Source: a virus. Taken from it: a stretch of DNA of 16,665 bases. Below are positions 1,627-12,200 of this stretch, piece after piece. Every line of letters begins with the position of its first letter. Within the stretch, counting starts at the first letter, position 1. The stretch lies in UHGV virus genome UHGV-0187499. One strand, given 5' to 3'. The notes below the pieces were generated by a model. The model made no database searches. It was not told the DNA's origin and saw only the letters and a list, made by a program, of their open reading frames with translations. Both the position numbers and the translations under genes were made by a program.

Positions 1627-1695
1627 CACTTCTCTGTTCTCACATAAATCACACTCTTTTTACACTCACAGCTTTCTCTATAGTTGGAGTGTATT

Positions 1696-3081
1696 TTGAA
1701 CAAATCAGTTACTTCTGCGCTTTCCGAGGCCGCAGATATTAACAGCGTCATTGCTCTGGTTTCTTCATTAGAGAGGAAAGAAACACGCCTGGGGCGAAGT
1801 AGCTACGTTGTCACCAGCAAAGGTGCAGAGGTAAAGACGGCTTTTAAGGTCGTTGATGCCAGCAGTCTGATCATTTCGAACAACCTTGACGGTATGATTA
1901 ACCCGGCCTTCCCGGAAGAACTCCAACCACGAGATCGTACCCGGCTATCCAGCAAACTCCAGGTTAACCGTATTGCCTCCAATTTACGCCCGGCACAATT
2001 AACGGATTCCGGTATGAGCAGCCACGGAGCGCCGATAGTTGGTCCGGACAACGTTGTTGAATCCGGCAACGGAAGGAGTATGGGTATCTGGCGTGCCTAT
2101 GAGCAAGGACAGGCGGATGAGTATCGCCAGTACCTGATCGACCATGCGAAAGAGTTTGGTCTGAATCCTGACGAAATTTCGCAAATGTCTATGCCCGTAC
2201 TAGTGCGAGAAAGACTCACAGATGTAGACCGCGCTCAATTTGCCCGCGATTCAAACATTAGCGATCTGCAAGAGATGGCAGCAAGTGAAAAAGCGTATGC
2301 GGATGCGCAATTTCTCACTGAGAGCGTCATGGCGCTATTTAATCCTTCAGATGATGGAAATCTGCTGGCGCGGTCCAATGATGCGTTTATTCGTGCGTTT
2401 TTGCGCGAAATTGGCGATACAGCGACGGCAGGCTTGCTTACTGCCGATGGGCGTCCCACGAAACAGCTTATCGATCGCATCCAGAATGCAATTTTTGCCA
2501 AAGCGTACAAGGATGAAAGGCTTGTTCGGCTAGTGTCGGAAGAGCCAGATCCGGAAATGCGTAATATCCTGACCGCATTAAATACGGCAGCCAGCGATTT
2601 TGCGCAAATGCAGTCGCTGTCTGGCGACGCTCACCATGACGCAGTAACAGGCTTAGTGGACGGTATAGAGCAGGTTAATGGCCTGGATAAACAGGCTATT
2701 GCAGCGCTACAGGAAGCAATTAACCTTGTTCGTGAAGCAAAAGATAACGGTCAGGCAGTAGAAGAGGTGATCGCACAGCGTGGATTGTTTGGAGATAGCA
2801 CTCCGGAAGCAGAAGCGCTTGCTCTGTTTATTGTTGCCAACAACCGAAGCGCTAAGCGAATGGGGGCCGCTTTCAAGAAACTGGCGCAAAAAATTAACGA
2901 TGAACTTATTCACCAACAACAAGCGTTAGGCGATATGTTCGGCGGCGGAGATGTCGATCTGCGTAGCATTTTATCTGCCGTTTCTGATGAAATTGAGGGT
3001 GAATTTGGCGAAGGGAAAGGTCTGAACTTTGCTATGTTTGAAAATTCTACAGTTCTAAATAATTGCAGTATGGAAAACTAA
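1696..3081 (+). CDS. Hypothetical phage protein (about 461 aa); acidic, Gly-rich C-terminus; candidate head or internal protein
   Basis: ORF track 1684-3081. Preferred start is TTG 1696, with GGAG at 1686-1689 six nt upstream; TTG 1684 is an alternative. No Walker A, so not a terminase large subunit. Sits directly upstream of the portal-like gene. Confidence 0.55.
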   Translation: MNKSVTSALSEAADINSVIALVSSLERKETRLGRSSYVVTSKGAEVKTAFKVVDASSLIISNNLDGMINPAFPEELQPRDRTRLSSKLQVNRIASNLRPAQLTDSGMSSHGAPIVGPDNVVESGNGRSMGIWRAYEQGQADEYRQYLIDHAKEFGLNPDEISQMSMPVLVRERLTDVDRAQFARDSNISDLQEMAASEKAYADAQFLTESVMALFNPSDDGNLLARSNDAFIRAFLREIGDTATAGLLTADGRPTKQLIDRIQNAIFAKAYKDERLVRLVSEEPDPEMRNILTALNTAASDFAQMQSLSGDAHHDAVTGLVDGIEQVNGLDKQAIAALQEAINLVREAKDNGQAVEEVIAQRGLFGDSTPEAEALALFIVANNRSAKRMGAAFKKLAQKINDELIHQQQALGDMFGGGDVDLRSILSAVSDEIEGEFGEGKGLNFAMFENSTVLNNCSMEN

Positions 3082-3145
3082 GCCAACCGCTGAAATCACA
3101 TACTGATTATGCTGCCGCAAAACTGGAAACAATTTGCGGTGATTC

Positions 3146-4828
3146 ATGGCAACGAAAGACAAAAACAAAGGCTTTCTGTCAGCATTGAAGAAAGCCTTCA
3201 ACGGTGGTGATGTTACGCCCGCCGATCCGGTCGTTTTTACGAGCGGGCATAGTGTCGTTGCTCGTTCCGGCCTGTCTGCTTTACGTCCAGGTATACTGGG
3301 GAGCAACAGCGATGGCATGACGAGTGCAGCAGATTCAATTTCTTTATCCGCTGAACTGCCCGGCGAGCGCCTGCAAAAGTACAACATCCTGGAAACGATG
3401 GCTAAAAGCCCGACTATCTCGACGGCTTTAAACATTCACATTGCACATGCGCTTGCGCCTTCAAAAAAAACCGGACAAGCATTCATCCTTTCGCCAAAGG
3501 ATGGTTCCGATGCTGAGGCAGTAAGTAGATGTGAAGAGTTAACCGCTGATTTGGGGGCGATGATTAATGACGGACTTCCTTCATGGGCCATGATTATGGC
3601 TATCTTTGGGGTGTCTTATGTCCGACCTTATGCTGAACAGGGCAGGGGGATAACAGGCATTGAGTCCAGTTATTACACTCTGCCACACTTCGTCCAGGAG
3701 TTTTATCGTGGTAGCCAGCTGGTAGGTTTCAGTGGTGATTACATTCTGGATACGCATAGTTTGCGCAGAGTAATAACCGAACCGTGGAATCTGGTTTCCA
3801 TGAAAAATCCCTATTGGACACCACAGCATAAAGTTATTCCGGTTAGCTACGGCACAAAAGGGTACTCACTGTTAAGTGATCAGGCTGATAAGCCGTTAAT
3901 GGAGACGCAGAATTACGGAACTTCATTCCTGGAATACAGCTATGAACCTTACCTTAATTTATGTGCTTCGCTCGCCGCGCTGAAATCAACGCGAAATAAT
4001 GCAGCCAAAATTGACCGCCTGATTGCTCTTACGACGAACACACTGGACCCGGTTAATGCGGCGAACTATACGCGTGGCGTCAGCCAGGCATTGAAGCGTC
4101 ATAGTGACCTGGTGGCGCAAAGGTCGATTAATGCCAACGCTATTCCGACTGTGCTTAACCATCTGATACCTGTTATGGGAGACGGGAAGAACGGCATCAC
4201 CATTGATACGCAATCCATACCCGCAGATATCAGTGGTATCGAAGACGTTATGTTTCACCTCCGGCAGCTTGCTGCAAGCCTCGGCATTGACGCAACAATG
4301 CTTGGCTGGGCTGATCAGATGAGCGGAGGGCTTGGAGAAGGCGGCTGGCAGCAAACTGCTATCCAGGCTGCATTGCGTGCGAACTGGATCAGACAGGCCG
4401 CCCAGCGAACTATTTATCGGCTTCTGGACATTCACCTCGCTTATAAATACGGCAAGGTTTACACCGAAACAAACCGCCCTTATGACGTGCAATTCAACTC
4501 AATGAACACTGCTATCCAGGAAGAGGAAAACCGAGAACTGGATGCACGCGCCAACTTTGTTGCTGTCATCTCCCAAATTATGGACCAGATCCAGAACAAC
4601 CCGAAACTGGCTGGTAGCGACGCGTTTATGCGTTATCTGTTCACTGAGCAGTTGCACATCGACGATGACACTCTCAACACCATGATCAAAGAGTTTAAGG
4701 CGAATGAATCAGAGCAAAACAACGAGCATGGTATGTACGAATCCGCGCCGTTGTCGTCCGGTGACGATCCGGAAAACTGGACGCCAGAACAGTTAATAAA
4801 CTTTGCAAAATTTGTGATGAGCAATTAA
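3146..4828 (+). CDS. Portal-like protein (candidate), 560 aa
   Basis: 560 aa with no NTPase motifs, an acidic C-terminal tail, and a position immediately upstream of a protease/scaffold-like gene that it abuts closely. The assignment rests on size and position, not on a recognised motif. Confidence 0.5.
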   Translation: MATKDKNKGFLSALKKAFNGGDVTPADPVVFTSGHSVVARSGLSALRPGILGSNSDGMTSAADSISLSAELPGERLQKYNILETMAKSPTISTALNIHIAHALAPSKKTGQAFILSPKDGSDAEAVSRCEELTADLGAMINDGLPSWAMIMAIFGVSYVRPYAEQGRGITGIESSYYTLPHFVQEFYRGSQLVGFSGDYILDTHSLRRVITEPWNLVSMKNPYWTPQHKVIPVSYGTKGYSLLSDQADKPLMETQNYGTSFLEYSYEPYLNLCASLAALKSTRNNAAKIDRLIALTTNTLDPVNAANYTRGVSQALKRHSDLVAQRSINANAIPTVLNHLIPVMGDGKNGITIDTQSIPADISGIEDVMFHLRQLAASLGIDATMLGWADQMSGGLGEGGWQQTAIQAALRANWIRQAAQRTIYRLLDIHLAYKYGKVYTETNRPYDVQFNSMNTAIQEEENRELDARANFVAVISQIMDQIQNNPKLAGSDAFMRYLFTEQLHIDDDTLNTMIKEFKANESEQNNEHGMYESAPLSSGDDPENWTPEQLINFAKFVMSN

Positions 4829-4841
4829 CCGGAGGGAAATA

Positions 4842-5840
4842 ATGCAATCACTGAATACTGTTACGGATCGCTTCTCCCTGGTAGAGAAAATCCGCAAACA
4901 CACACCGCAGAACAACCGAAATTACGTCATTCAGTCGGTACGAGACACATTCAACTCGCCAGAAACAAAAGAGCGTATCGCGCTGGGTGAGATGTATGGT
5001 TATTACGGTCATGGTCGCCGGGCGATGCACTATAACAAAACGAAAAGCCTGAACTTGCCGGAAGTCTCTGTTGTGATGGTAGATGGGAAGCCTGTTGTAT
5101 TGGAGAACGTGCCATCCAACAGGACTATCGACATTTCGATTGACGACAACGGCATTGTTACCCATACGCAGGAAATACTGGATACAGACACCGGGCGTAT
5201 TGTTCAGGGCATGATTAATTCTGGTGCTGGTGGTTGGTCGTGGGCTACATCTGGTCCAGATTCATCGGTATCCCTGGTAAAGTCTTTCCACGGCTTTGAT
5301 TACGTAACTGTGCCTAACTATATCAGCCTCGACAAGAAAAGCCTGATGCTTGAATCAGCAGAAGAGCGCGATGCGGCTATTCATGCAGCACTTATCGAAC
5401 AAGGTTTTACCGATAACGCTGCTACGGATCTGGTTCACCACTTTTCAGCAATGAAAAATCAGCAAGCCATGCTCGAATCTGCACATCGTGAAGCCCTGGA
5501 ATCAGAATTGATGCTCCTTGAAGTGGAAAACATACAGCTTCGAGATAAGCTGCGCGCTCAAACAGCGATGATGGAAAGCCAGGGGGAAAATGCAAAGCAA
5601 TGCCGCCGGATTTTGCGTGACGCTATCCAGGAAATGCCTGTTTTTATCAGCGCAGAACAGCGTCGGGCGCTCTGCCGTATGCAGTCTGAAGATGATGCTC
5701 GCATAGTGGCTGCGATGCTTGAATCTCTGGGGGCAAATGCGACTTATGGCTTGCCGATATCAGGCAAGAAAGAGCCGGAGTTATCGCCGAAGGAGAGCAA
5801 AAATACTACCCCATTACTCTTCGTTTCGCGACGGGTATAA
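4842..5840 (+). CDS. Head-maturation protease / scaffold-like protein (candidate), 332 aa
   Basis: Strong RBS: GGAGGG at 4831-4836, five nt before ATG 4842. Globular N-terminal half (GYYGHGRR, SGAGGWSWATSG) and coiled-coil, helix-rich C-terminal half, as in protease-scaffold fusions. Lies directly downstream of the portal-like gene. Confidence 0.4.
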   Translation: MQSLNTVTDRFSLVEKIRKHTPQNNRNYVIQSVRDTFNSPETKERIALGEMYGYYGHGRRAMHYNKTKSLNLPEVSVVMVDGKPVVLENVPSNRTIDISIDDNGIVTHTQEILDTDTGRIVQGMINSGAGGWSWATSGPDSSVSLVKSFHGFDYVTVPNYISLDKKSLMLESAEERDAAIHAALIEQGFTDNAATDLVHHFSAMKNQQAMLESAHREALESELMLLEVENIQLRDKLRAQTAMMESQGENAKQCRRILRDAIQEMPVFISAEQRRALCRMQSEDDARIVAAMLESLGANATYGLPISGKKEPELSPKESKNTTPLLFVSRRV

Positions 5841-5868
5841 CCGCTGAATGAAGTTAAATTTCTAACAT

Positions 5869-6040
5869 AGTGTATTTATATACACTGTTGATCCTGTCCG
5901 ATGTGATCGAGTAGGATCGCGGTCACTGCTCCGGTAGCGATTGCCAAAAAAAGCAAAAGCCGCTGAGAAGCGGCTTTTGGGTGTATAAATCCACTGGCAT
6001 AGATTTATACGGTAGATAGATTTTTTCACGGAACTATCTG
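5869..6040 (+). promoter_or_regulatory. Dyad-rich, GATC-dense control region upstream of the HTH protein gene
   Basis: Inverted repeat AGTGTA-N6-TACACT (5869-5886). Three GATC sites within 29 bp (5890-5893, 5905-5908, 5915-5918), inside the dyad GATCCT...AGGATC. 9-bp inverted repeat GTATAAATC (5983-5991) / GATTTATAC (6002-6010). Inverted repeat AGATAG (6014-6019) / CTATCT (6034-6039) directly abutting GTG 6041. Confidence 0.35.
5955..5978. terminator. Rho-independent terminator closing the head-gene operon; possibly bidirectional
   Basis: Stem GCCGCT / AGCGGC with a GAGA loop, flanked by an A-tract upstream (AAAAAAAGCAAAA) and TTTT downstream, so it could terminate in both directions. Confidence 0.55.
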
Positions 6041-7003
6041 GTGAATATTTTAAATTCAATTTCAGTAACTTTCAACACTTCTGAGTATAAAAACAACACT
6101 GAATACCACAAAAAAATCAAAGGTCATCAGTTGAGTTTTTTTGCTCGTCATAGCGGTTTTCTTTCCCCTTCACATAGCGCCATTATTGCCGAGTTCGCCA
6201 ACCTGGCAGGAGCTACCGATGAATACATGATCCGTCGCTCATATGCTGATATGTCCGAGATTACAGGACGCAGTATTTCTACTGTGCGCCGGGCATTTGC
6301 TGAAGCGACGAAGTGCGGAATGCTTGTTAAGCAACATCAGGTAGCGAATAACAATGCTCAGGTGTGTAACGTATACCGGTTTACAACACAATTTCTCCAC
6401 TTCATTCATGTAGCAATGGAGATAGGGGGTAAGCAGGGCATCAAATTTGCGAACGCCACAAAACTGGTTAAGCAGTTGATTTCAAAGGTTCGGTATTTTT
6501 TTGAAACTGGGAACCCCCTGTTCAAATTGAACAAGTCCCCCCATGTTCAAAATGAACAGCCAATAGAAAATAAGAGTCACTCTATAGCCAAAAGAAGAGA
6601 AAGATCATGCGCGGTTCAGCCAAAGGCTTCACCAGCGGATAGTTCTCAAGCGGATAATGGGATGCTGGATAAAAAACCAGTAATCAGGGAAGAACATACC
6701 AACCACTGCCTGGCGGCGGCAAAAGCGAGAGCTGCAAAGCGTCGTTCAGACGAGGGGCACGCAAAACGGCAGGCTCTGTATCGTACCGCTGAAAAGCTGG
6801 CAAAAAAATTTGCATGGATACGTAGTGCCGCTACCGCAGTGAATAAGCCTAAACAATCCAGTGCCCTGGATTTCTCAATGGATTATTCTGGCTCCCAGGG
6901 GTGTGCAACCATTGGTGAAGCCTTTGACCTGATGAAACAGCGTGGCTATCGGTCTGAATTTGACCGGGAGGATTGGTCAATCCCTGCGGGATTTAGGGGA
7001 TGA
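6041..7003 (+). CDS. HTH DNA-binding protein; candidate replication initiator or regulator; start codon uncertain
   Basis: HTH-like segment MSEITGRSISTVRRAFAEATKCGMLVKQ and a basic C-terminal region (KRRERS..., KARAAKRRSDEGHAKRQ). The first 80 nt of the maximal ORF are AT-rich and may be leader. Alternative in-frame starts are TTG 6131 (AAAGG seven nt upstream) and ATG 6227, which is preceded by an AGGAG-driven 3-codon mini-ORF whose TGA overlaps it. Stop is TGA 7001-7003. Confidence 0.5.
   Translation: MNILNSISVTFNTSEYKNNTEYHKKIKGHQLSFFARHSGFLSPSHSAIIAEFANLAGATDEYMIRRSYADMSEITGRSISTVRRAFAEATKCGMLVKQHQVANNNAQVCNVYRFTTQFLHFIHVAMEIGGKQGIKFANATKLVKQLISKVRYFFETGNPLFKLNKSPHVQNEQPIENKSHSIAKRRERSCAVQPKASPADSSQADNGMLDKKPVIREEHTNHCLAAAKARAAKRRSDEGHAKRQALYRTAEKLAKKFAWIRSAATAVNKPKQSSALDFSMDYSGSQGCATIGEAFDLMKQRGYRSEFDREDWSIPAGFRG
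6514..6559. repeat. Two tandem palindromic iteron-like repeats embedded in the HTH protein coding sequence; origin- or operator-like
   Basis: CCCCC-TGTTCA-AAT-TGAACA (6514-6533) and CCCCCCA-TGTTCA-AAA-TGAACA (6536-6558), period about 25 bp, followed by a purine-rich A-tract region (6562-6606). Confidence 0.6.
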
Positions 7004-7046: not shown

Positions 7047-7112
7047 TCGATGATTTGTATTAGAAAATTAATTTGCTGTTTCTAAATCGGAATGTATGAT
7101 CTGCATCATCGA
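7047..7112 (+). promoter_or_regulatory. Candidate sigma70 promoter bracketed by an 8-bp inverted repeat
   Basis: TTGCTG (7073-7078), 16-nt spacer, TATGAT (7095-7100). Flanked by TCGATGAT (7047-7054) and ATCATCGA (7105-7112). Inner dyad TTAGAAA (7060-7066) / TTTCTAA (7079-7085) overlaps the -35. Confidence 0.3.
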
Positions 7113-7141
7113 CTGAAGTCATCCATTGCTGAAATTTTTAG

Positions 7142-7170
7142 TTGATCTTCCATGTTTTCAGGCTTATATT
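7142..7170 (+). promoter_or_regulatory. Candidate sigma70 promoter for the antisense-RNA / antirepressor operon
   Basis: TTGATC (7142-7147), 17-nt spacer, TATATT (7165-7170); the predicted start site would lie about 25 nt upstream of target copy 1. Confidence 0.3.
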
Positions 7171-7200
7171 CATGCCGTCGTAGCAAATTCTGCGACCAGG

Positions 7201-7222
7201 TTTGACAGCCTGAATGATTGTG
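7201..7222 (+). promoter_or_regulatory. Upstream copy of the antisense target pair (a1/b1-like): TTTGACAGC ... TGATTGTG
   Basis: TTTGACAGC at 7201-7209 and TGATTGTG at 7215-7222. This is a direct repeat of the pair at 7370-7406 and is complementary to CTGTCAA and CACAATC in the candidate RNA. Confidence 0.4.
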
Positions 7223-7290
7223 CGGACAACCGCAGATTTCCGATATTGCGGTATTTTTGTGTCCGTTAAACCGCGTTACGCCCAAATTAT

Positions 7291-7364
7291 GGTGGGGCGT
7301 GATGGGGAGGCTTCGGCCTGCTGGTTTCACAATCGCCAGTCTGTCAACCCTGTCACGTCCTGCC
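7291..7364 (+). ncRNA. Candidate c4-like antisense regulatory RNA, about 74 nt, structured
   Basis: Hand fold: a 12-bp closing stem (7291-7302 with 7353-7364, including three G-U pairs); a C(UUCG)G tetraloop hairpin at 7308-7319; a second hairpin (stem 7320-7324 / 7336-7340) presenting CACAATC (7328-7334) in its loop; and single-stranded CTGTCAA (7341-7347). Both boxes are complementary to both target copies. Confidence 0.4.
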
Positions 7365-7369
7365 ACCTG

Positions 7370-7409
7370 TTTGACAGCGGGTAGCAGGTTGTTAAACCTG
7401 ATTGTGAGG
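7370..7409 (+). promoter_or_regulatory. Downstream copy of the antisense target pair (a2/b2-like), overlapping the RBS of the 74-codon ORF
   Basis: TTTGACAGC at 7370-7378. TGATTGTG at 7399-7406 overlaps the Shine-Dalgarno GTGAGG (7404-7409), eight nt before ATG 7418. Confidence 0.4.
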
Positions 7410-7417
7410 CCGTAACT

Positions 7418-7642
7418 ATGGTTAACGCCAATCCTTGCTCACGTCCAGAATTCATCTGGCGTTTCCACTCCCTGCAAAAACACTGCGATCACTTCGCAAT
7501 TGCCGCAACCGAAAAAGAAGCCCGTTCTCTGATCCCTGATCAGTATGGTGTTCTTACTGGTCGTTTCTCTACTTCCCCACAACCAAACACTAATCCTTGG
7601 TATCGCAATATTACCAATCCCGGCATTGCGGAGGCACATTGA
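7418..7642 (+). CDS. Small leader ORF (74 aa), translationally coupled to the downstream antirepressor-like gene; icd-like by position
   Basis: GAGG eight nt upstream of ATG 7418. Stop TGA 7640-7642 overlaps ATG 7642 of the next gene. Its RBS is covered by the b2-like box. Confidence 0.5.
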   Translation: MVNANPCSRPEFIWRFHSLQKHCDHFAIAATEKEARSLIPDQYGVLTGRFSTSPQPNTNPWYRNITNPGIAEAH

Positions 7643-9214: not shown

Positions 9215-12200
9215 TTGGATAAACTACTTCATTCAATCAGTGAAGCCTCCAGCTTAGGCGAACTGATTGAGATTGTTAGTCGGTTGCATAAATTACGTGC
9301 TGTTGCGACCTTTGGCGTTAAGAAAGTCGATGGTGTCAGCATTCAAAAAACACGGCGGGCAGCAAACAACGCCGCAGTAGAGCTTCTTAATTCCCTTCCG
9401 CCCGGCTTCGATGGGGCGAAATTAACTGACGAACAGCGTCAGATTCTTGCCGGGTATACCGGTGAAGGCGGCCTGACAGATGGTGAGGGCAGCCAATACG
9501 AATACTACACGCCACAGTTTATGGCTGAAGGTATATGGGATCTGTTTGCTGACTACGGTATTGATGGCGGGCACGTACTGGAACCATCAGCGGGCACAGG
9601 TATTTTCCAGGAGACAAAACGACAGGGCATGATAATGACCAGCGCCGAACTGTCTCCGATTTCCGGTCGAATAAACCAGCTTTTGCACCCGGAAGACGAT
9701 GTGAATATCGGGGCGTTTGAGGCGCTGGCGGCGAAAGACGCAACGTATGATCACGCTGTTGGTAACGTACCGTTTGGTGAAGGGCGTTCCGGTGTCGCCG
9801 GGCTTGATCCGGCATATGCAAACGAGAAGAACGTTGGCAATTACTTTGTGCTGCGCACTATCGACAAGGTTAAGCCAGGTGGGCTTATCGTATTGGTGGT
9901 GCCGAATGGCATGACCGATGGTACGAAATATAAAAAATTGCGCGATAAAGTCAGCCGTAAAGCGGAATTTTTGGGCGCACATCGTATGCCTTCCGGTACG
10001 TTCAGCGAATCCGGTACAGATACCGTGGTGGACGTATGGGTATTGCGTAAACACCCGGAAACCTTCCTGGAGATGATCCCCGACACGGATGATTCAACAC
10101 TCAAATCGGCAAACGTCCTTTGGGATGCCTTCCTCAAAGGAAAATGGTTTACAACCGAAGGGAAGCGATTTGTTTACGGCGACATGGAACGTACCAGCTT
10201 CCGCAATACCCTGGTGGTGAAAAAGGACGGTCGTGTATCCAATGAGTCGATGAAAACCGCGCTATCTCGTCGCTTTGATAGTCGCATTAATTGGGATTTG
10301 CTCGGCGTAACTACTCAGGCATGGCAGGGCGCGAAAGTGGGCGATAAACGCCTAGTAGGCGGCATCTGGCATGAGTTTGATGGCCTGAAATGGGTCAAGG
10401 ACACGACAACCAAATCCTCCGCGCTTGATGTAAGTCGATATGGTGTTTCGACATTCGGTGATCTGCAAACAACGTTCCAATCAACAAACGGCATTCTGGC
10501 TCTGTCATGGGGGCAGATATCCGCGATCGCTTCCGACTATCCATCGGTTATCAGTGATGAAGTAGCGGCAATGATTCGCTTTGCTGGGAAACAACGCGAA
10601 AAAGACCGTGAGCGCATTATGCGCGGTGCGCTGATCGGGCAACTTATCAATAAAGCGCTGGATAAGCGTAACCTTGGTGAAAACGTCGATGATGAACTGG
10701 CTGATGCCGCACGTCTGACGGCTGCCGAAGTTGCTAAATATGGCCCACCACACGCCATTAAGCTAAACGACATTACCGAAGCGGGCGCGAAGAACTGGCT
10801 GACATTCACCGGGAACGTCAATCAGGACGGTGAAGCATCCGATCTGCTGTCCGGACGGCTTGATGTTAGCAAAGGGGCTGCTGGTATTGATTTCACTCGT
10901 CCGGAACAGGTTGTGACACACCTTTTCAGCGATGTTGCCCTTAATCCTATCAATCTTGATGACTTCCGCGAGGCGTTTAAAGGCGAACTGCCAGAAGACG
11001 ACGATCAAGCACTGGAATACCTGGCGAAATTCGACGATATCGCTATTGATGGATATGGTTGCCTGCTACCGATGGGCCGTGCCACTAGCGGTGATATTAA
11101 ATCAAAAGTGGCACTGCTGGTGGGCTGGCGAGACGCGTCCACAGGAGAGCGGAAGGCCAACTTTGAGCGCCAGCTTTCAAAAATCGAAGAGAAACGCACG
11201 TTTACACCGCTGAACAAAGTCACGGTAAACCTTAACGCACGGTGGTTGGATCGCCGCCTGATAAAAGAGTTCCTGGCAGAGCAGGGCTATGACGAGTTTA
11301 AGTATACAGAACCCGACCTTAAGGTTGAGAACGGCATTCTGGTATCCCCGGACGATTACGAAGGTAAGGACGGGGTATTTACTGGCTACCAGCTACGAAC
11401 CGTAAACGGCAAAAACGGGAACGAGTTCAAGAAAGCGAATAACAAAGATGGCTTCCTGAATCAGCTTGAGAACTACCTGAACGGTGTTAAACCGCGCGGA
11501 CAGAACGCTAACGAGTACCTGGACAAAATCGCCCAGCTTGAGACGAGTTTTAACGACTGGTTAAGAACTCACCCGCAGGCAGACCAGATCGCCCGCGATT
11601 ATAACGACGCCTTTAACGGTTATATTCCATTTACCCATTCAGACGCACCCCTGGGGCTTGAAGGCATCAGCGGGAAACGTATACCGCTTTCTTACCAGAA
11701 CGAAGAAGTTCGTCGTCTGTCGGAAGATGGGCGCGGTATTATGGGATTCGGAACTGGTTTGGGTAAAACGACGACCGCGCTGGCACTGGAAGCCTATAAC
11801 TTTGAAACCGGGCGAACCAAACGTACCTGTATCGTTGTTCCAAAGGCCGTATACCAGAACTGGTATCACGAGGCACAGAGCTTCTACAGTGCAGATGCCT
11901 TCGCCAATATGATGTTTATCGGTCTGGACGAAGTGCGCGATGGTGACGGAAATATTCAGACTGCCCCAGTGCTCGACCAGGACGGCACCCCGCGACTTGA
12001 TAACGACGGCAATCCGATCACCCGTAATGTTGTTAAAGAATCCGCCAGTGCCGTTATCGCTCAACGCATGAACATGATCCCATCGTCGAACTGGCGAACG
12101 GTCATCATGACAAAAGAGCAGTTCGCATCTATCCCGTTGCGCGATGAAACCATCGGAGAAAACTCACAGCAGGCTGTCTTTAATGCCGCCGAAATGGGGC

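Follow-up and report, generated by a model that had tools for sequence, protein, structure and literature searches.

The closest described system to the locus studied here is the region controlling phage P1's lytic replicon. As annotated in the P1 genome (AF234172), this region contains, in order, a hairpin terminator after ant whose minus strand has a run of seven T residues (T7); within 23 bp, three sites labelled 'Dam methylation sites within the regulatory region of kilA', the last of which falls in the -35 hexamer (TGGATC) of PkilA; PkilA itself, formerly P53, with the C1 operator OrepL (formerly Op53) over its -10 hexamer; and the antisense promoter PaskilA (formerly P53as), which has a mapped start 19 nt into kilA, at the 20th base. 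On the AF234172 annotation, approximately 180 nt separate the P53as start from the T7 terminator. P53 is repressed by C1 at Op53, and transcription of repL is essential for lytic replication (PMC9948254). The DNA considered here is a viral sequence of 16,665 nt, UHGV-0187499, the whole of which is referred to as the window; in it, a gap of 200 bp separates pro, the gene for a head processing protease, from repL, the gene for a lytic replication initiator. This gap is probably a lytic-replicon control region composed of the same kinds of parts as Op53, P53 and P53as of P1, set in a different order. Elements of this type, named after phage D6, are found in E. coli and also in Salmonella and Shigella, and whether they persist as quiet plasmids or begin lytic replication would hinge on these 200 bp.

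By sequence similarity, the window belongs to the D6-type, P1-like phage-plasmids. Over the 1.5 kb surrounding the repL leader, identity is 98.3% to Escherichia phage D6, which is P1-like and persists as a plasmid in its prophage state, and 99.8% to Shigella and E. coli plasmids of approximately 92 kb. On the D6 record, the region corresponds to the 200-bp gap between orf21 (pro, annotated as 'similar to P1 pro'; window 4842-5840) and orf20 (repL, 'lytic replication protein, similar to P1 repL'), and it is in this gap that the inverted repeats and GATC sites discussed below fall. The window repL (6041-7003, plus strand) encodes 320 aa from a GTG start; its product is 97.8% identical to that of D6 orf20 and 27% identical to P1 RepL across 92% of the length (E ~1e-15). 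Precomputed Pfam assignments place the family in PF26868 (Phage_P1_RepL), and a local Pfam scan gave only a sub-threshold HTH_36 match. No kilA is annotated beside repL in D6 or its relatives, and the leader runs directly into repL. Of 5426 complete E. coli genomes, 97 have the same leader on plasmids, and it is never chromosomal. Nucleotide searches with the control region matched D6-type records only, and the D6 GenBank record leaves all of its parts unannotated. These identities bear out the first-pass annotation, which had seen in the letters alone a leader with regulatory features, likened to those of initiator genes and of P1-like elements.

Conservation was assessed by comparing leaders from four lineages. 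These comprised 15 distinct sequences of the D6 clade, plasmids of S. dysenteriae and E. fergusonii (RepL 64-65% identical, leaders approximately 75% identical), and, as distant lineages, Enterobacter hormaechei-type contigs and one metagenome contig (RepL 33-35% identical), in which the prt-pro-gap-repL synteny is kept. A scan of reference genomes yielded no further lineages, a metagenome scan found D6- and S. dysenteriae-type loci only, and a scan of IMG/VR with the promoter pattern returned the known lineages plus chance matches in unrelated coding DNA. Plasmid pSa1423-90k, considered as a 45%-identical relative, proved to be a noisy assembly with frameshifts and was dropped. For the RepL homologue of the metagenome contig (L035 2501-2583), the called TTG start is probably wrong; the ATG-ATG at approximately 2580, after GAGGG, is a better fit to the N-termini of its relatives, and the gap would then be approximately 385 bp.

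The strongest signals of the region, all overlooked in the first-pass annotation, are an antisense promoter, a terminator with an 11-bp stem and a C1-type operator. The candidate antisense promoter, Pas, lies on the minus strand within repL codons 3-12, with its -35 hexamer (TTGAAA) at 6075-6070, a 17-bp spacer and its -10 hexamer (TAAAAT) at 6052-6047. It matches 10 of 12 consensus positions in a promoter scan and, when both strands are scored by a simple sigma-70 weight matrix, ranks first in the window and likewise in the whole 91-kb D6 genome; the same scoring ranks the annotated P53as promoter top of the P1 region. Neither hexamer changes in any D6-clade variant or in S. dysenteriae and E. 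fergusonii, whereas the spacer and flanks are variable despite being coding sequence. Likewise, the best promoter-like site of the gap in the two distant lineages lies on the minus strand and points toward the terminator (TTGCGC or TTGCGT, a 16-bp spacer and TATAAT), and in every lineage the top promoter-like site of the gap faces the terminator from the repL side.

Transcription from Pas would be expected to produce an antisense RNA of approximately 95 nt (5946-6040, minus strand), complementary to the repL leader including its Shine-Dalgarno sequence. Three clean hairpins are predicted for this RNA (minimum free energy -33.2 kcal/mol, z = -6.1). SL1 (6014-6039) is formed by the AGATAG-N14-CTATCT dyad (AGAUAG/CUAUCU in the RNA) and has in its loop a UUCC complementary to the Shine-Dalgarno GGAA at 6030-6033; SL2 (5983-6010) is formed by a 9-bp dyad, GTATAAATC-N10-GATTTATAC, lengthened to 12 bp by G.U pairs available on the minus strand only; SL3 is the terminator, with its stem at 5954-5979. 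When the hairpins of 11 distinct sequences were aligned, 96% of the cells were paired, the figure for the 9-bp dyad being 97.7%. Within this dyad, the 7-bp core of each arm is invariant and the spacing fixed, with a variable spacer. Conservation of the SL1 dyad is confined to the D6 clade; in S. dysenteriae and E. fergusonii the sequence of this region is different and includes a 45-nt insertion, which folds into two different hairpins. The predicted S. dysenteriae antisense RNA is a string of four hairpins (z = -8.4), in which the insertion adds a hairpin and the pattern is kept. Corresponding z-scores are -4.8 in both distant lineages and -5.8 for the P1 RNA. When the terminator is excluded, the minus strand still gives the better fold of the two strands in four of the five lineages, P1 among them, and the G.U pairs favour the minus strand.

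Several other readings of the same bases were rejected. A minus-strand open reading frame (ORF) at 5862-6059 could encode 65 aa, but coding on this strand was ruled out because near-identical relatives differ in it by one-base indels in A and T runs. A putative leader peptide running from GTG at 5981 to TAG at 6019 has no start codon at that place in S. dysenteriae and E. fergusonii. Attenuation of the pT181 type was dismissed as well: the fold contains no alternative anti-terminator pairing, and the terminator comes ahead of the antisense target, which makes the geometry unsuitable. An Rfam search of 5780-6140 gave a best match of 21.6 bits against a cut-off of 55, and across the window only C4 and c4-a1b1 pass.

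The Pas transcript would end at a predicted bidirectional intrinsic terminator (5946-5983), made up of seven A residues (5946-5952) and an 11-bp perfect stem (CAAAAGCCGCT/AGCGGCTTTTG, 5954-5979) with the loop GAGA. This stem is the strongest dyad of the leader, and the terminator scan called it on the minus strand, with the tail CTTTTTTTGG. Across relatives the stem is conserved and the loop variable (GAGA, GGGG, CCCCCA). All lineages, and P1 too, have a counterpart of this terminator, with a T-run at least as long on the minus strand as on the plus strand. The terminator loops of S. dysenteriae (L030 3107-3132) and E. fergusonii (L031) are exact reverse complements of one another, GCCGCTGGGGGGCGGC versus GCCGCCCCCCAGCGGC; such a flipped hairpin fits action in both directions.

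On the plus strand, the main candidate for a repL promoter is P-up, with a -35 hexamer (TTGATC) at 5888-5893, an 18-bp spacer, a -10 hexamer (TAGGAT) at 5912-5917 and a predicted start at approximately 5925, some 30 nt before the terminator stem. Its score of 9.4 is joint ninth in the window. The pattern CACTG-TTGAT(C/T)-N18-TAGGATC is invariant in sequence and spacing in the four lineages, down to 33% RepL identity, and the 18-bp spacer is hypervariable, with three haplotypes in the D6 clade alone. Because the hexamers are conserved and the spacer is free to change, P-up is read as a sigma-70 promoter; it is also the sole sense-strand candidate scoring at least 7 before repL in the distant lineages. 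A weaker candidate, P2 (TTGGGT, a 17-bp spacer and TAGATT; 5977-6005, plus strand; score 9.1), is overlapped by the 9-bp dyad. S. dysenteriae and E. fergusonii retain both TTG and TAGATT, there separated by an 18-bp spacer, and P2 has no counterpart in the distant lineages. The direct repeat CGGTAG occurs at 5932-5937, in the body of the predicted short P-up transcript, and at 6010-6015, in the linker immediately 3' of the 9-bp dyad; GGCGTAG likewise recurs in S. dysenteriae (L030 ~3094-3100 and ~3167-3173). Repeats of this length are at chance level. They would let a short P-up RNA pair with the SL1-SL2 linker of the antisense RNA.

Directly upstream of the P-up -35 hexamer lies the A/T-rich palindrome AGTGTAT-TTAT-ATACACT (5869-5886). 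The first-pass annotation had placed this dyad correctly but described it as AGTGTA/TACACT, one base pair short of its 7-bp arms. Its right arm and the next bases, (A)TACACTG, are conserved in all lineages, and the left arm partly; no further copy exists in the D6 genome. It may act as an UP-like element or as the site of another factor. An Lpa-dependent late promoter at the palindrome was considered and rejected, as no -22 box and -10 hexamer occur in register within 5841-6040; the reference was a single P1 promoter, LPpro (AAGTGACTA, 4 nt, then TAAATT), and matches to an LPpro-like box across the window are at chance level.

A putative C1-type operator overlaps the first three bases of this palindrome. 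Counting k-mers with no prior motif, TGTTAGAAA(A) emerged as the most repeated 9-12-mer of the D6 genome. Seven of the 12 exact copies of TGTTAGAAA fall in annotated gaps, before c1, c4, ref, pmgS, pdcB, hrdC and gene 23, and the others adjoin gene ends or lie just within them. The approximate consensus, tttgTGTTAGAAAacta, resembles the P1 operator ATTGCTCTAATAAATTT. Given this distribution and the likeness to the P1 site, the family is taken to be the D6-type C1 operator. Examples in the D6 genome (L004/L005) lie at 191-217, 4624-4650, 10313-10339, 21258-21284, 64108-64153 and 76628-76654; weaker copies occur too, one before lpa and one as an inverted pair at 64108-64153, and GenBank annotates none of them. 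A matrix built from the 12 D6 sites finds just two matches of at least 8 bits in the window. The first (minus strand, 5849-5875, 19.6 bits) corresponds to the operator at 5855-5871, supported by both the k-mer family and the matrix, with its core TGTTAGAAA at 5859-5867; this places it at approximately -70 to -54 relative to the predicted P-up start. The second (plus strand, 7050-7076, 26.5 bits) stands before the c4/icd/ant immunity operon, such that repL is bracketed by two C1-type operators. The core of the first is kept in the leaders of S. dysenteriae and E. fergusonii, and a TTTCTAA remnant of the operator is found exactly 22 nt upstream of the -35 hexamer in every lineage.

The immunity region immI follows repL directly in the window (7050-7420), with an operator, a promoter, c4-a1b1, C4, icd and an anti-repressor. 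The promoter (TTGATC, a 17-bp spacer and TATATT; 7142-7170) has the second-best promoter score in the window and a GATC in its -35 hexamer. Rfam matches above threshold are found for c4-a1b1 (7164-7216) and the C4 antisense RNA (7285-7370), and icd (7418-7642) precedes the anti-repressor. The P1 order is reversed, immI there preceding kilA-repL, and no immI follows repL in the relatives from S. dysenteriae and E. fergusonii or in those of the E. hormaechei type.

Taken together, these parts suggest how the gap may work, the activities assigned to them (binding, transcription, termination and methylation dependence) being inferred from sequence and from the analogy with P1. In the prophage, C1 bound to the operator beside P-up and to that beyond repL would keep sense transcription low, either by hindering upstream polymerase contacts with the A/T-rich palindrome or by pairing or looping of the first operator with the second. 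The GATC sites in the P-up hexamers could add control by Dam methylation, or by SeqA after replication. Sense transcripts would reach repL only by reading through the terminator, which appears better built for the minus strand. Pas, which has no operator, would be constitutive, both making the RNA of approximately 95 nt and sending polymerases against sense transcription; antisense RNA and converging transcription together would damp leaky repL expression, whether by blocking translation, by RNA cleavage or by transcriptional interference. The P53as transcript of P1, an antisense RNA of approximately 180 nt attributed to Heinrich et al. (1995, Nucleic Acids Res 23:1468), reportedly has the same effect on leaky repL expression. 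Upon induction, P-up would fire, some transcripts would pass the terminator and RepL would be made.

A number of observations weigh against this interpretation. The promoters and the antisense RNA are predictions throughout. Covariation in the hairpins is thin, with two SL2 pairs changed on both sides in a single lineage, and a dyad-symmetric protein site would give the same pairing pattern. Since Pas lies approximately 95 nt upstream of the start codon in the distant lineages, overlap of the antisense RNA with the Shine-Dalgarno sequence cannot be general. A simple promoter model is hard to square with a terminator lying between P-up and repL; the terminator of lineage L035 has six T residues on the sense strand, and P2 is a possible second sense promoter in the D6 clade. 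The operator core of phage D6 itself carries a single mismatch, and the operator, centred at approximately -62, lies outside the core promoter, unlike Op53 of P1. Finally, the GATC overlapping the -10 hexamer is the only one of the three that is invariant across lineages.

This last point bears on a different explanation, a tentative one, in which the GATC cluster is itself the main control and P-up is switched by methylation (Dam or the phage enzyme Dmt) or by SeqA sequestration, tying repL transcription to the state of replication or methylation as at IS10 pIN and dnaA P2. The sites, at 5890 (GATC1, in the -35 hexamer), 5905 (GATC2, in the spacer) and 5915 (GATC3, overlapping the -10 hexamer), do span 29 bp as the first-pass annotation reported, but its argument from an expectation of one per 256 bp is insufficient. 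There are 73 GATCs in the window, one per 228 bp, and this is the sole run of at least three in 29 bp in either the window or the 91-kb D6 genome; the chance of such a cluster arising somewhere is nonetheless P ~0.33 for the window and ~0.70 for the D6 genome. The count is therefore not significant alone, and what weight the sites have comes from their placement and from the relatives. Two of the three lie in the hexamers of a conserved promoter-like element, in agreement with the suggestion that they belong to a control element, and GATC2 and GATC3 are 10 bp apart. The proposed likeness to Dam-controlled regions of P1-like elements also fits: the P1 record annotates three Dam sites at the lytic-replicon promoter, one of them in its -35 hexamer. 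D6 encodes an adenine methylase. Between one and four GATCs surround the promoter in each of the four lineages, their positions partly turned over: the distant lineages have two to four elsewhere around the P-up counterpart, and the enrichment (P = 0.0003) falls to P = 0.034 without the invariant site. However, the set of three is not a conserved feature. GATC1 is lost in S. dysenteriae and in the relative L012, and GATC2 in S. dysenteriae and E. fergusonii, leaving S. dysenteriae with one site and E. fergusonii with two, as in L036. TTGATC and TAGGATC may be kept merely as good hexamers, and a search of the accessible literature found no published test of the P1 Dam sites. Folding of the GATC region into a conserved hairpin was rejected, as it folds well in three haplotypes and not in four others, with no compensatory changes. 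Dam sensitivity of P-up as one component of the control region is, with the P1 parallel, plausible.

A second alternative, which appears unlikely, is that the dyads are operators for a dimeric protein, most simply for autorepression by RepL, with the 9-bp dyad covering P2 and the last dyad blocking initiation. All three dyads of the first-pass annotation exist where it placed them, the arms of the 9-bp dyad occupying 5983-5991 and 6002-6010, 10 nt apart, and those of AGATAG/CTATCT 6014-6019 and 6034-6039, ending one base before the GTG at 6041. The last of these encloses the repL Shine-Dalgarno sequence, consistent with the claim that it is placed near the site of initiation; the fold around the repL start codon is unremarkable (z = -1.6). 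In dinucleotide shuffles of 5841-6040, perfect arms of at least 9 bp occur at a mean of 0.01 and two are observed, and arms of at least 7 bp at a mean of 0.22 with three distinct ones observed; a 6-bp dyad alone is at chance level, approximately 0.9 dyads of at least 6 bp being expected per 200 bp. The invariant arm cores of the 9-bp dyad, their fixed 10-bp spacing and the variable spacer would suit a dimer site, its right arm overlaps the -10 hexamer of a conserved candidate promoter, and RepL has a weak helix-turn-helix signal. Against autoregulation by the 320-aa protein, GTATAAATC occurs outside the arms just once in the 91-kb D6 genome, within a tail-fibre assembly gene, which also disposes of it as a genome-wide operator; it is absent from repL and from the leaders of the RepL homologues at 33-35% identity. 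Furthermore, extra base pairing persists in the spacer beside the arms, some of it by G.U pairs of the minus strand only, and the third dyad is neither above chance on its own nor a conserved site, being absent from the relatives with leaders 75% identical. A protein operator here would be compatible with an antisense RNA.

The order of promoter and terminator also allows a layout unlike that described for P1, in which a C1- and Dam-marked promoter is followed by a conserved bidirectional terminator that it shares with a very strong counter-transcript, and repL is expressed by regulated read-through. This is doubtful, though consistent with an order conserved to 33% RepL identity and with the lack of another sense promoter in the distant lineages. 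In such a layout P-up would mostly make a sense RNA of approximately 60-80 nt, whose 3' end complements that of the antisense RNA, and it is conceivable, with equally little confidence, that this RNA titrates the antisense RNA at induction.

It is very unlikely that the terminator alone is functional, ending the late prt-pro operon, with the other dyads and the GATCs arising by chance in an A/T-rich spacer. The pro gene does need a terminator, one 6-bp dyad is to be expected, and the window-wide probability of the GATC cluster is as given above. However, 5851-6100 is almost invariant among D6-clade relatives while the 3' end of pro is strongly divergent, discrete blocks are conserved to 33% RepL identity, dyads of at least 9 bp (almost) never appear in shuffles, and Pas is the best promoter match genome-wide. 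The change is abrupt: at a mosaic boundary at approximately 5781-5850, the last 70 nt or so of pro and some 10 nt beyond differ at up to about 40% of positions between D6-clade relatives, which suggests either a recombination breakpoint or strong constraint on the leader. Further upstream, ORF coordinates place a ddrB-like ORF directly before prt in the window (1684-3146) and in the Shigella plasmid; phage D6 (L001 4038-6547) has two extra small ORFs, orf24 and orf23, totalling approximately 1.1 kb, between them.

Least probable of all is that the lytic origin, oriL, coincides with the leader or lies inside it, with dyads, A/T stretches and GATCs serving initiation: origins often combine such features, and ATATACACT is a 7/9 match to a DnaA box, but that box degrades in relatives, the leader has no iterons, the window repL has candidate iterons of its own, and P1 repL transcribed from a foreign promoter, without the leader in cis, still replicates its own plasmid. 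The P1 origin is itself annotated within repL (AF234172; PMC9948254). The candidate iterons, at 6514-6557, are two tandem units 25 bp apart, CCCCCTGTTCAAATTGAAC and CCCCCCATGTTCAAAATGAAC, each a C-run plus the palindrome GTTCAAA(T/A)TGAAC. The S. dysenteriae repL keeps both units, whereas the E. hormaechei-type, JGI and P1 genes lack them; they are candidates for the RepL-binding iterons of a lytic origin.

The reading of the gap as a P1-type control region can finally be set beside systems already described. Short counter-transcripts govern rep genes in several plasmids, among them CopA/CopT of R1, the Inc RNA of ColIb-P9 and RNAI/II of pT181. The RNA predicted here resembles them in being short, presumably constitutive, multi-hairpin and complementary to a rep leader, with one loop facing the ribosome-binding region. 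It differs in that the D6-type element would govern an induced lytic replicon under a prophage repressor, rather than a steady-state copy number; no leader peptide or pseudoknot is evident in the D6-type leader, and, unlike pT181, the terminator, placed at the target's far end, is transcribed before it. Among promoters sensitive to Dam or SeqA through GATCs in their hexamers, such as IS10 pIN, that of the Tn5 transposase and dnaA P2, P-up is comparable in having a GATC within the -35 hexamer and one overlapping the -10, with another GATC one helical turn from the -10 site. By contrast with these, only the -10 GATC of P-up is conserved across relatives.

P1 itself is the nearest parallel. The two regions share a RepL-family initiator downstream, a C1-type operator (putative in the window), a sigma-70 promoter with a GATC in its -35 hexamer and three GATCs in less than 30 bp, a second operator just past repL (Op55 in P1, the c4 operator in the window), and, at the first gene's 5' end, a strong antisense promoter directed toward a bidirectional terminator with a long T-run on the minus strand. 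At the sequence level, this geometry of antisense promoter and terminator holds in four lineages and P1. The differences are equally clear. The control regions have no sequence similarity, the GATC in the -35 hexamer being the only motif shared by eye, on top of the low identity of the RepL proteins; the window has no kilA between promoter and repL; its operator lies at approximately -62 rather than over the -10 hexamer; and immI comes after repL rather than before it. The terminator of the window is downstream of the sense promoter, whereas that of P1 is upstream, and for this reason the antisense RNA (approximately 95 nt, against 180 nt in P1) misses the promoter and the GATCs. The conceptual gain is modest, as this kind of control was already known and what is added is a rearranged layout of unannotated parts; those parts, namely a D6-type C1 operator consensus, a probable repL promoter and a candidate antisense RNA, are nevertheless usable. 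The P1 design, a repressor-controlled promoter combined with a constitutive counter-transcript and a two-way terminator, would have been kept despite sequence divergence beyond recognition, which argues that the antisense arm is essential to the switch and not an oddity of P1.

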